The translations under genes and the position numbers were made by a program. From contig OZ076409.1 of assembly GCA_964187785.1 (NCBI GenBank), positions 1,054,001 to 1,118,000 on the forward strand: a DNA stretch of 64,000 nt, written 5' to 3'. Below are positions 1 through 61,000 of the stretch, piece by piece. This DNA is from Amphiscolops sp. MND2022. Lineage: Eukaryota. The first letter of the stretch is position 1, and each line of letters begins with the position of its first letter. The notes under the pieces are model-generated. The model saw nothing but the letters and a program-made list of their open reading frames with translations, had not been told where the DNA came from and did not search any database.

Positions 1-2245
1 TTTACCAAGGAAGAGGTATATTTTAGATTTCCGCTTTCAATTGAAGGCGAAAACTATCCCAGATAACAGCGGACGTCTTGAATTGTATTGTATATTTCTG
101 GAAATTTCAAAATAATTTACTACCAGCCTTCAGTAGTACTAACACAATACCAACAGCAAAAATGAAGTATCACACTCGAACCAAGAAACGTATGCAATAC
201 AATAACTTCTACTGATATCTTGAGAAAAAGTTTCTTTATAGGGATTTTACCCCTGTGGGTCTATCATCATGTTTGGTCATTTTGCGGCGTTTTATGAAAG
301 TGTGAGACTTCACAAAAGGTTCTCATTTTTAAGGAATCCTCGACGCGTTGCAAAGATTTTTCCTTCACTGAGACTACAAATTTTTTATGGAAACAATTTA
401 GCTTTGAGCCCAAAGAGACTCCTTGTAGTTTTCTTCAGTCTGTGGATTGGGGAAAAATCCAATTAGTTTAACTGAAGTTTTCAAGTTGCGCATTTTGAGC
501 CTCGAGTGAAGCGTCCACTTATGCCGTTCCAAACATGTTTTATCTTTTAACCAATGGAAACGAATTTCCCAAAACTTTCGGCACATCTCAAGCTCGCAAG
601 CAATCAGAGAGTTGTGTGTGAAGAAACGCAGTCGAAACAGAGAGCTAAGTTTAGTATTTTCAGAAAAATTGAAATTGAAAAAAAACAACTGGATTCTCCA
701 ATACTTTTTTCATGTTTTCGTGATATAGATCCATACAGTTTGTTAAATTTTTCATACAACTACAGTAGTGTTCTACAAAATTGCATCTCCGTTGCTCAAA
801 ATAGCAAATTTCAAAACCAATTATTTTGAAAACTCCCACGACTACAAACAAGTCGCAAACGGTTTAAGTCGGAGCCATATATAAGGCTCGAAACTAGCAA
901 AAAGATTTCAAAGTGTCAACTGTTCTTTTAGAGTACGCGAGAAAAAAAACAATTTGGACCGAATTGGCGCGCCGCTACCGTGGCCCCCTGGCGCGCTTAA
1001 GAGGGGGAACCCTTTCAGAGCATCCATTTTGTCGCGAAACATCAAAAGGATTGGAAAGGGGACCCTTTGAAAACAATTTTAAAAATTTTCGAAGAAGTCT
1101 TACAATGTCGAAAAAACTGAAAAGGGGGACCCATCGGGATTTTTTAACATCCATTCTGTTGCAACAAATCAAAAAAATTGAAGGGGGATACTTCGGCGAA
1201 TTTTTTTCGAAATAAAGGTGGCACAATGCCGGAAAAAACTGTAAAAGGGACTCTTAGTCTCGCCCGGTATTGTATATTTACGCGGAAAACTTTTTGGTTC
1301 AGTTCATTATGCCAAACGGTTAAATTCGACTTCGTAGAACTTTGTAGAACTATTTTGGTCAGTTCGTGTGGATTGAAAAAAGCATAATAGTTCCGTCATT
1401 GACTAAAAATTGTCAGCTAGGGAAGTTTCTTGATTTTGTAGGTTTCAAAAGTGTTTGGAAGTTCTGCGACAAAGTTGAAATTTGTAAATTTCGGCAAAAT
1501 TCAATCAAATTTTGCACCATTTCTCAATTTTCAAGTAAAAAGAAAATGTTTTTGGAAAATTTACAGTCAATCAATTGCGCCCATAACTCTTGAGGATGCT
1601 TGTATAGTTTGATTGAAAATTTTTAGATTTCACAAAATATCAATTTTCTCTCTTAGCCTCTCTTGATACAGTGTTGGGTGTTCAGAGAAACAAAATACTG
1701 TATATTTTCACTGACTCGAAACAAATTCTCTTTGAGTAGTTCAGGACGTTCGGAACATTACAACGTATCTCCGAAAAAAATCCGAAAGTTTTGATGTTAG
1801 GCTACTCGATTTTCGACACTCAAATTTCATTTCTACCTCACGGATTTTGTATTTGTGACAGTTCACCAGATAATTGGGTTTGAATTCTGATATTCAAGAA
1901 ACCTTTTTAACCAAATCAGGAGACGGACTCTTTGGTGATTATCTTTTTAACACACGTTTAAGACACAGAGGCGAAGCGGTGCTTCGCAACACATGACGAA
2001 GACAATGATTATTTTAATATGCGTATATATATTATTTTAATCGCATGCGTACATATTCAACAGTTCAACTTTATTCAATAACGTCCTTATGGCACAGTGG
2101 TTAACACTTATGCCGCGCAATCGGGAGGCTGCAGGTTCGAATCTCTCTGGGGTTTTGGCTTCTCTCTAAAAGGCGCTTATTATGAAGTTGGCTATTGTGG
2201 AAAAAAAACTTTCTTAGCTGGACTGCAATGCACATTGACTTCGTC

Positions 2246-2788
2246 GGATTACGTAAATAACTTCTAAATAAATAAGTTCTAAAATTATATTAGTAAATAA
2301 CTTCTAAATAAATAAGTTCTAAAATTATATTAGTAAATAACTTCTAAAATTCATTTGCGTCTGGTAACTTCTGAAATCATTCTAGTAAAGATTGCTATTC
2401 ATTCTTTCGAAAATAAATTAACCGTTCCATTATTCCGAAAATAAACTTACCGTTCTATTATTCCGAAAACTGTTATTTGAAAAGATTAGCATATTTGTTG
2501 TATGGCTCGGTCGCTTCGCTCCCTTCGCCAAGTAGCAACATTGAGGCATGGCCATATGGCACGTCGCTCCGCTTCGCTTCGCTCCTGCATTTAGGGCACT
2601 AGGGGTATGTGAACATAGCTAACGACGTTATAGAAATAATTACGTCAAAATAGCTGTTTGGAAGTTATTTACTAGATGCCATTGCAATTTAGAAGTTATT
2701 TACTAAAATAATTTTAGAACTTATTTATTTAGAAGTTGTTTACTATATTAATTAGAAGTTATTTATTTAGAAGTTATTTACTTCCCCC
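2246..2788. mobile_element. Foldback/MULE-like MITE nested in a family B copy
   Basis: Long inverted arrays of GTAAATAACTTCTAAA / TTTAGAAGTTATTTAC; flanking duplication ACTTCGTC (2238-2245, 2789-2796). Confidence 0.75.
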
Positions 2789-58000: not shown

Positions 58001-61000
58001 TCACCGAACTCACACGGAAAATTAGAGTGCTAGATTTCGAGGCATAAATGAAAGAAAATTCGTTGAGAAACAACATTTTTATACACTAATCACGGAGATA
58101 ACAGATAGGATTCGCCACATTTTGAATTTGAACATAAAAAGTTAGATCATTTCTTCAAGAAGAAAAGAGAAGAGAGGTCTCTTTAGTACAAGGCAGGTAC
58201 TTTGAGAGTCATAAGTAAAACATGATTATTCTTTAATAAAATTGATCCCTTCTGCAATTAAACTGCAAAACAATTTGCAAAGAAATTTCAGCCCATTTCG
58301 ACATAAGTCATTTTCTTGCTGATAAGAGTTTGTCCAAAAGCTAAGAAAAACAATTGCAACGAGAATTTGATAGTAAGAAACAGCTGCGCGTTACATTATT
58401 CCTCCGTTTTGGTATCAGGTCAAAATCTCCTAAAAGATTAGTTATCGCGATTAGCTACGTTCGCATACTGATAGTGCCATTACTTGACCAGCGGCTGGTT
58501 TTGACGAAAGCCGAGTCGTACAACCGATTTCTCGATTTTTTTTCATTTAGATTTTAACCTAGATTTTGACACGTAATCTCCGGCTTACATTGTCTTACAT
58601 ACAGTAGCGTTCTAAAATGTCGTAACTCCATTGCTTAAAATTGCAAATTTCAAATCCAAATATCTTTTGTAACTGTCGCTAATACGACTAATACGCTAAA
58701 ACTGTCGCCAATACGGAAAATTGTCAGCTACAAAAGTTTCTTAGAATTTTATCTAGTTTACAAAAATGTTTTGTTTGAAATTTCTGCGACAAAAATTTTT
58801 TGACAAAATTTCATCGAATTTGCACTTTTCCTTGATTTTCACAAAGTTGAAAAAGTATTTCTGAAAAAATTTCAGTCAATCATTTGCTTCCAAATCTCAC
58901 GAGGATACTGATATGATTCGATCTAGAAACTTTTTCGATTTCAGATAATGATCAATTTTCTCAATACAATTCTTATAGCCTATCTTAATATATGTACTTC
59001 AGTGCTCATAGACACATAATATAGTGCATTTTTCTGATTCGATACAGTTTACGAGATATTTGGTTTTGAATTGTGCCATTTAAGCAATGGAGTTGCGATA
59101 TTTTAGAACATTACTGTAGTACAGATGTGTATGTGTGGCTGCTAACTTGAGATGTTTGGCTCCTCTGGCGTGAGCGTTGTAAGTGTCCACACTGGTGCAC
59201 GTGACGTCACACAGCTCGCAGTAAAAGGTCTTCTGGCCTGGCTTCTGCTGGGCCACCACCGAGGCCGCACTGCCCCCCACAGCCGGGGAAGCAGCAGAAG
59301 AAGCACCCCCTTCCGACACCGGGAACCCCCCACCACTCTTCAGTTGTTGCTCCTTCTTCTTGTGTTTCTGGCCCTCCAAGTGCTCCTGCAACGAAACAAA
59401 ACTTATATTTATATCATACTTGCAGACCATTTAAATTCTTTCAAAAAACATCACTAAATTCCGAATTTAAAATAGGCCCCTGTGGGGAACAGTATTATTT
59501 CTATTTTTAGGCTCTCATCATCAATAATAGAAGCAATTCTTAGTCATTTATATAGCGCACAATTAATCAGTACCAGTTAACACCGCCTTCAATTCTTCTC
59601 AGACTAAAGCAAATATAACTACTAAGCGTAGACGAAGTTTCGCATTCGCATTTGAATGCAGGCGAAGCTTTCAACGAACAAATAATATTTAACACTCGTT
59701 CGCTTCATCTCAATGACCCTGCGTACGAATGCATAATTACCACTCGCTCGTGCCATTGCACGAGAAACGAATTGTTGTGGGCAGCTTGAAAAATTTAAAT
59801 CTCACGCCTATACTCACTGCCGAGCAAAATATCTGAATTTTTCAGTAGGTATTCGAATCGCGTACGAAAAGTTGACTGAAAAAAAAGTTGCAAAGTTCAG
59901 ATTTCAATATTATTCCTGCTATCGCAGACAGAATAAAAATGAAATAAACAAGTTCACTCATAAAAAACGGTGAAGTGTAAAGTTATTTGGTATAAATGAA
60001 ATAATTATAGTATAGAACTAACAAGCACAAAATAATCATTCAAAGTTATGAACACAACATACTAGGGATTCAATTAAAAACGGTAATCTTTCCAACATTT
60101 CATTCTATGCACGGGATGTTCAGTCTTTTTTGATTTGAGAAATGTAGTGATGTTTCAGTTTTGTCTTGATACTATCATAGTTTTTCTTTTCGAAATGGAT
60201 TCTGGTATGTTGTTCCACAGGAAAATCATGAAACAGTTCTGTGAAAAGTGGCATTGCGTCAAAAATAACTTAGTTTGTTCTTTCAAAAAATTTAATTTCA
60301 AGGAGATTCACTTCTTCATCCCAGTGATAGGCACAGATGATTTCTTTCCTCGTTCAAGCCAGAGTTTTGACGCCGCTAAGTAGCGATTTTTTTGGCTCTT
60401 TTCTGCCTCCCACCTCCAAAATGTTTTGAAAAAAATTTCGTTAAAAAGTTTAGACTAGCCTAATTAAATGTAAAACCGTCTTTCATAGCAGGAAGTTAAC
60501 GTCTATAAGAGTAGTTTTTTGTTTGAACAAAACATCTTTCACGCACTTTTACTGTAATTATGTTCGAATTACCTGTTTTTTTTGTTGATTTCTTTACCAA
60601 GATAGCGTGACTTCATACGCAAAAACAGTGTGAACAAAGCTTGTATCTGAATTCTAAACTGTCACCATGGAAATAAAAAATTTGAAATTGAAGGCTTCTG
60701 GTTTGTATTCAAGTCTTTTTGTTGTGATATTTCCACTAATGTTCCAAAAAATAGCAGTGGGGGCAGAAAAGAGCCAAGGAGATTCACTCTTTGGATCGCA
60801 GTGATAGATATGATTTCATTTTCCTTTCATGCCAGAGTTTTGACGCCGCTAATTAGCGATTTAGCAAATTTCAGCGATTTTTATTAGCGGAAACTAATAG
60901 ATTGTTCCTCCAATTCAAAATTCCTTTGAATACACACGGAGTTTCAAAGAGAAAAATCTGGTCTTGAAGTTTTCCAGAAATAGTAGCATAGTGCCGAAAA

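Follow-up and report, generated by a model that had tools for sequence, protein, structure and literature searches.

Gene-strand orientation bias of short non-autonomous Helentrons in an Amphiscolops genome

HINE copies around two minus-strand genes

The window analyzed here, a 64,000-nucleotide stretch of Amphiscolops sp. MND2022 (C1:1,054,001-1,118,000 of a 1.07-Gb genome), holds two intron-rich genes, both encoded on the minus strand, and some thirty copies of short rolling-circle transposons. The first gene is MRPL19-like (4052-25728; Pfam Ribosomal_L19), and its coding model places the exons approximately at 25546-25728, 22645-22893, 14441-14662, 8552-8668, and 4052-4174. The second (27957-63298, running past the window) encodes a DZF/zinc-finger protein resembling ZFR/ILF3, as judged from its exons, DZF_N, DZF_C, and zf-met domains, and a match to ILF3. 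The transposons are HINEs, that is, non-autonomous Helentrons, and are grouped into families A (A1 and A2) through F. Most copies lie in the sense orientation of the host genes, and this bias is a real, genome-wide, family-specific feature.

The HINE identity proposed in the first-pass annotation, which was made by eye from the sequence, is borne out by element structure and agrees with the published definition (PMC4067079; here and below, sources are cited for their accessible parts). Read on the minus strand, complete copies open with a T run and a subterminal repeat, and the body is followed by the inverted repeat, a hairpin, and a short CT-rich terminus. The subterminal inverted repeats (subTIRs) lie a few nucleotides inside the 5' end and some tens of nucleotides before the 3' end. 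Both were found in complete copies of A1 (66), A2 (34), B (19), C (8), D (7), and F (4), while those of family E were recognized by eye only; family A subTIRs measure 9-10 bp. DNA folding returned a 3' hairpin for A, B, C, D, and E but none for the folded F copy (32734), although the F copy at 12221 has a visible stem. The 5' end adjoins a run of about five Ts, a feature partly demanded by the search itself, and the first 3' flank position is T in ~55% of copies. No target-site duplication was evident in the flanks of complete copies, for which no empty-site comparison was made. The 3' termini read CTTGTT, CTCTGTGT, CTATTTT, or CTCTGGTT, unlike the CTRR-3' of HLE1. A canonical Helitron (HLE1; 5'-TC, CTRR-3', no inverted repeats, AT target) was rejected, given that the ends start with a T run and subTIR, as was a miniature inverted-repeat or other cut-and-paste element, given that the repeats are asymmetric and subterminal with the hairpin lying outside one of them. 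A de novo structural search proved too strict, yielding 52 matches from families B, C, and F only.

Autonomous partners were sought among 10 Rep-helicase loci of 152 genomic Helitron_like_N matches. For family A, one 11-kb element at C1:34.70 Mb has both A-type ends around an intact 2,304-amino-acid open reading frame (ORF) containing Helitron_like_N, PIF1, and Exo_endo_phos domains, with the hairpin downstream. This placement upholds the earlier assignment of the hairpin as the 3' end, so that copies with the hairpin on the left are minus-strand elements. A B-like partner is represented by two 99%-identical 10-kb copies in which a sister-type hairpin end lies 3' of Rep/PIF1/endonuclease/UCH ORFs; its subTIR departs from that of the window B copies at 2 nt, and neither copy yielded a 5' subTIR. 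No partners for C, D, E, or F were present among the 10 loci. Three kinds of deubiquitinase-type domain (JAB, OTU, and UCH) occur in Helentron ORFs from three locus pairs. Separately, all 17 Rep-helicase matches listed for C1:71.6-76.5 Mb are on the plus strand, most in open frames of 1,200-2,545 amino acids. One scanned ORF there combines Rep, PIF1, and a C-terminal GIY-YIG domain, and two examined loci lie among same-direction repeats of a related ~1.3-kb unit; this region is possibly a satellite or centromere-like domain colonized by a Helentron clade with target specificity.

To score orientation, hairpin-end profile hidden Markov models (HMMs) were rebuilt solely from copies outside the window and scanned against both strands. 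They detected 31 hairpin-left and 2 inverted ends, with no matches in the reversed sequence; after removal of two tandem duplicates (13098 of 12222 and 42654 of 41503), the ratio is 29:2 (binomial p=4.6e-7). Each of the 30 hairpin-left starts previously counted by eye is present at its position, and the HMMs recover 29. The one they miss, the family D copy at 57453, has lost its hairpin part but is oriented as the rest, and the HMMs added ends at 8941 and, partially, 15019. The first-pass annotation had recognized a single complete inverted copy; that copy stands (33226-33559), but a second, degenerate inverted end (482-539) had been overlooked. Among its inverted fragments, one was located by blastn (53089-53143), and those at ~22260, ~46170, and 52350 were recognized by eye only. 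Co-orientation with the host genes likewise holds for both genes and is repeated outside the window, although the window is an extreme case in which the bias is stronger than on average.

The individual copies are on the minus strand unless stated otherwise, and isolated hairpin ends were located by profile HMM. Beyond the last MRPL19 coding exon lies the degenerate inverted family A end (482-539, plus strand). Past the stop codon are a family A hairpin (3') end confirmed by its letters (846-920), a family B element with both ends located and an internal insertion (1963-2802), and another family A end (3451-3524); given these three copies, an intronic position is not established for every insertion. 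Additional family A ends occur at 8938-9010 (overlooked by eye; match at 8941) and 16066-16139. Between them are a family F element (12221-14040), the hairpin end of which appears twice (12221 and 13097) through tandem duplication, and the partial hairpin-left end at 15019, also missed previously. A complete family A copy (21876-22230) is followed by D (23158) and C (23353) hairpin ends within 23158-23402, complete A (27028-27669) and A2 (28180-28661) copies, and a family C end (30076-30125). A complete family B copy (31029-31317) has 12-bp subTIRs and a 3' hairpin with a 7-bp stem. Next are a family F end (32734-32780), the only complete antisense copy, from family A (33226-33559, plus strand; profile HMM), and a family D end (33642-33685). 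Within 34331-34717, a complete A copy (34331-34665) abuts a family C hairpin end (34668), and another C end lies at 37538-37587. Two family A copies (41503-41864 and 42654-43015; overall 41503-43015) belong to a 1,154-bp tandem duplication and represent one insertion event. The remainder comprises a complete B copy (44837-45128), a family E hairpin end (48232-48292) with matching subTIR-like ends near 49155 and 49722, a degenerate B end (49807-49845), a complete C copy (52542-53082), A2 (53798-54060) and D (54111-54513) copies together spanning 53798-54513, and a group at 55212-57500 consisting of an A2 end (55212), a D copy (56388-56641), and the D copy without a hairpin (57453). The last is a family C copy (59469-59940; profile HMM). 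An Rfam search gave one marginal transfer RNA-like match (30.3 bits) at 32784-32854, just within the family F copy at 32734, and a similar stretch is visible by eye in family B bodies.

Other repeats share the window. An intron of the MRPL19-like gene contains a minus-strand Gypsy-like long terminal repeat (LTR) retrotransposon (17310-21873). Its two 310-bp LTRs are identical, its pol is frameshifted, and 2 bp separate its end from a family A copy. Decayed hAT transposase pieces (DUF659 and hAT dimerization domains) lie at 10500-11700 (plus) and 63619-63867 (minus). Two minus-strand ORFs (267 and 232 amino acids) at 6500-8160 lack a Pfam match and are flanked by an inverted repeat with a CAGGGCTGCCGC-like start; together they are probably a DNA transposon remnant. 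Tandem duplications that are 97-99.7% identical occur at 11836-13538, 41404-43707, and 60611-63105, as well as at C1:1.117-1.123 Mb, and two exons of the DZF gene are duplicated just past the window end; such recent duplications could be real or assembly artifacts. In exons of the host genes, third codon positions are rich in G+C and acceptors are preceded by GT-rich tracts; by contrast, large-exon kinase and DEAD genes mostly have a third-position G+C content of 0.36-0.54. Comparison with a phage collection gave no match.

Orientation and host genes across the genome

Chromosome-wide strand bias was ruled out by the near-equal genome-wide strand counts of exact 35-36-mers (B, 928:911; C, 637:683; A, 1682:1724). 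Orientation was then read against host-gene strand in 60 10-kb stretches (33 plus, 27 minus) around kinase and DEAD-box exons, representing ~58 genes. Sense copies outnumbered antisense copies in families B (15:1), C (16:2), D (10:1), and E (3:0), or 44:4 together. The weaker families gave 34:21 for A1 and 21:11 for A2 (A, 55:32) and 8:7 for F. Models trained on the window returned nearly the same counts as those built without it. Tallied by locus, sense B-E copies prevail in 29 loci and antisense ones in 3 (p=2.6e-6). The host-gene dependence raised in the first-pass annotation is thus confirmed beyond the window, for genes of both strands on many chromosomes, although that annotation overlooked its dependence on family and gene: the bias is strong in B-E, 63% in A, and absent in F. 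A further 60 short loci gave 10:1 for B-E, 21:14 for A, and 1:1 for F; these were kept out of the pool owing to overlap with other samples and the inclusion of single-exon genes.

Contiguous regions gave the same picture. Inside exon-bounded spans of four regions, B-E were sense in 37:0, and in three new regions all 29 B/C/D copies were co-oriented with adjacent host genes. The count of 29 rests on gene names and strands read from Pfam matches, includes two copies 5' of HGS that qualify only if a nearby ORF lacking a Pfam match is a transposon, and contains two C copies in ASCC3 that are a single insertion, duplicated. B/C/D orientation flips between HGS (plus) and the SPOP/exchanger group (minus), and again between ASCC3/KDM5 (minus) and TLK/ATP-synthase c (plus), with flips at divergent as well as convergent gene pairs. 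Gene-blind measurements on C1 add that pairs of B copies agree in 45 of 46 cases below 60 kb (tandem arrays counted) but only at 0.47-0.59 beyond 600 kb, and that 19 of 20 C copies share the orientation of the nearest B within 30 kb. Such proximity to a B copy applies to 35% of C copies versus 10% of random points. For family A, orientation matches that of the nearest B/C in 14 of 21 cases and, when the nearest A is taken instead, in only 15 of 35. As a non-HINE control, repeat tiles were clustered. The three best-filled clusters were, by reading, A, C, and D bodies (44:24, 19:2, and 17:1). None of the 11 remaining clusters, all small with 4-11 copies from outside the window, was significant, so the control is weak.

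Placement also differs among loci. Across 86 kb of the MRPL19-like and ZFR-like genes, B-E are 16:0 sense. A 306-kb span of G-protein-coupled receptor (GPCR) introns and gene-poor flank, including a 101-kb rhodopsin-type GPCR gene, holds no B-E and 13:13 A/F, with family A at 3:7 in the GPCR gene. As predicted beforehand, Cys-loop receptor introns lack B-E in the 49.5 kb covered of a planned 400 kb (0 versus 4 expected, P=0.019); A there is 2:3 and F is 2:0. Families A and F combined are 38:9 in loci holding B-E and 25:30 in loci without them (p=2.6e-4). These counts are read most simply as an excess of sense copies in one gene class plus a strand-blind background found only in A and F. In a tandem array at C1:90,935,600-90,940,400, the unit has two A ends facing opposite ways, which pushes up the number of antisense A copies counted there.

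Mechanisms that could set the orientation

To explain why roughly nine in ten B-E copies are sense, we lean toward strand-specific integration, with the non-template strand of germline-transcribed genes as its target. The Rep-helicase transposase would join the element plus strand to a non-template strand laid open by transcription, perhaps in a bubble, an R-loop, or supercoiled DNA, with the nick introduced by the HUH domain or by the appended endonuclease. If, as we infer, the joined element has the polarity of the nicked target strand, a sense orientation means that the non-template strand was cut. The relevant transcription would be germline, judging from gene class. Families A and F may use the same route along with a strand-blind one elsewhere, which would dilute their bias. 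Whether some Helentron families are, in general, transcription-coupled, strand-specific integrators that enter almost only the non-template strand of germline-transcribed genes we rate as an even proposition. If so, a eukaryotic HUH transposase would take its single-stranded target from transcription and not from the replication fork, and thousands of fossil copies would constitute a stranded map of germline transcription.

Several points weigh against integration of this kind. The labels "germline-expressed" and "silent" are guesses from gene class, and the adhesion-GPCR region carries sense-biased copies that such a guess would not have foreseen. Family A is 16:15 between predicted exons of the 60 loci and 0:3 in the TLK region, family F shows no orientation bias, and four B-E copies in the 60 loci are antisense, two of them in one locus. 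The 306-kb span was delimited after the data were seen, one contiguous region was picked for a B strand switch, and the Cys-loop (neural) test is small, with seven A/F copies. Genes and replication forks can be co-directional. Finally, a single assembly records survivors only, so loss before fixation is possible, and AATAAA occurs in the disfavored reading of all eight complete C copies (favored reading, six of eight); these last two points speak for selection.

Intronic orientation bias of L1 elements has been ascribed to selection. A selection account for HINEs would have them insert in both orientations into open transcribed genes, with antisense copies then rapidly removed because of cryptic polyadenylation or splice signals, polymerase stalling, or silencing; we consider this unlikely. 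Helraiser does target expressed genes, and endogenous Helitrons are described as reshaped by selection (PMC4778049). The account nevertheless requires that ~90-95% of intronic inserts 290-510 bp long be lost in four families unrelated to one another, which would be unusually strong selection for short non-coding intronic DNA transposons. The first-pass annotation had suggested cryptic polyadenylation sites as its agent, but in family B the relevant motifs lie on the favored strand (AATAAA, 8 versus 0 of 19 copies; ATTAAA, 17 versus 1; the splice-like GTRAGT, 7 versus 0), as does AATAAA in family D (3 versus 0 of 7). Nor does the bias grow with copy age, which had been named as a sign of selection: from the most to the least similar class, B-D are 23:1, 24:2, 17:1, and 9:0, and A is 35:15, 26:11, 9:6, and 14:7. 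Selection acting before fixation would leave no such trend. The antisense-leaning A counts in the GPCR gene and the Cys-loop receptor introns also fit poorly. Avoidance of double-stranded RNA in the pre-mRNA, another earlier suggestion, was rejected as a sole cause; being symmetric, avoidance of inverted pairs would bring the copies of one gene into agreement without any preference for sense, and hence cannot yield 29 versus 3 loci.

Strand-specific integration could instead occur at replication forks, into one template strand as for IS608, with the forks moving through expressed genes in the direction of transcription. IS200/IS605 HUH transposases use the lagging-strand template, even in highly transcribed rrn genes (PMC5027513), and the ~100-kb correlation length suits replicons as well as genes. 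Even so, we regard this as improbable. The bias tracks gene strand at 92-100% through tandem-gene runs, which favors a link to transcription over one to replication; the first-pass annotation had left both in play, and replication fits less well. Sense bias also includes the 3' part of ZFR by the MRPL19 start, where a promoter origin would be expected to give head-on forks, and the 306 kb without B-E is replicated too, leaving their absence unexplained.

Less probable still is strand-specific loss without selection, in which copies with the hairpin on the template strand would be excised or deleted by transcription-coupled repair or the transposase. Such loss would likewise track gene strand, and the window does contain a few inverted fragments, but inverted remnants are scarce, no age trend is seen, and sense density far exceeds that of flanking DNA. 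A sequence artifact, arising from a T-rich target in T-skewed introns, nesting in earlier copies, or duplication of local founders, is very improbable: element ends do lie in T runs, HINE sequence flanks 19 of 102 B-E copies (16 in the same orientation), and the window has two tandem duplicates, but repeat-masked introns have a TT:AA of 1.10 and a T5:A5 of 1.29 (window genes 1.01 and 1.13), a flank weight matrix predicts only 52-55% sense, un-nested B-E copies are 79:4 (in wider spans drawn after the data were seen), and for 23 of the 30 window copies scored, the best match lies beyond the window; these results largely rule out T skew, nesting, and the local founder duplication contemplated in the first-pass annotation.

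Comparison with known systems

The element type is already known, and the gene-strand bias may be the new part. Like HINE/DINE-1 elements and Helentrons (HLE2), the copies have subTIRs, a 3' stem-loop, T-rich ends, and internal repeats, and their partners combine Rep, PIF1, and endonuclease domains, some with OTU or UCH (PMC4067079, PMC11417382). Family A subTIRs are shorter than the 12-15 bp described for HINEs in these sources. Unlike the HINEs described in their accessible parts, where no such bias appears, four families here are ~92% sense and nearly confined to certain genes. The accessible parts of PMC5148889, PMC4224331, PMC13286980, PMC1181806, PMC11417382, and PMC10030826 likewise report no gene-strand bias of Helitron-like elements, and we found no report of intronic sense bias for Helentrons or HINEs in a literature search that covered few subscription papers and no supplements; an earlier account, perhaps of DINE-1 or Helraiser, may exist. 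Rice intronic transposable elements show no orientation bias (PMC7145194), and in zebrafish, every class except the rolling-circle families is depleted from genes (PMC9341512).

The way in which Helitron-like transposases reach single-stranded target DNA in a eukaryotic chromosome is unsettled in the literature as far as the accessible sources go, and a gene-strand bias of ~92-100% that differs between families of one genome makes this question testable. In a genome so rich in repeats, HINE copies could in addition serve as markers of gene strand and of germline expression. Helraiser (Helitron1), for which 1,751 de novo insertions in HeLa cells have been published, shares the HUH rolling-circle chemistry, moves the plus strand only (PMC5876387), is modeled as joining a nicked single-stranded target, and prefers highly expressed genes (PMC4778049). 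It differs in its palindromic AT target and ~2-fold gene-body enrichment, and section 10 of PMC4778049 contains no orientation analysis. Intronic L1 and LTR elements resemble the HINEs in that orientation depends on host-gene strand, but these are retroelements, and L1 is reported in the template-strand orientation (PMC10030826). In Paramecium, telomere-capping Helitrons have an orientation bias, absolute in that case, attributed to one-strand insertion; there the strand is set by the telomeric repeat (PMC13085455), whereas the HINE target carries ~5 bits and predicts little of the bias. As with IS608 and the IS200/IS605 family, an HUH enzyme, a single-stranded target, and orientation fixed by the exposed strand would be involved, but orientation follows the replication fork in those elements (PMC5027513) and the host-gene strand here.

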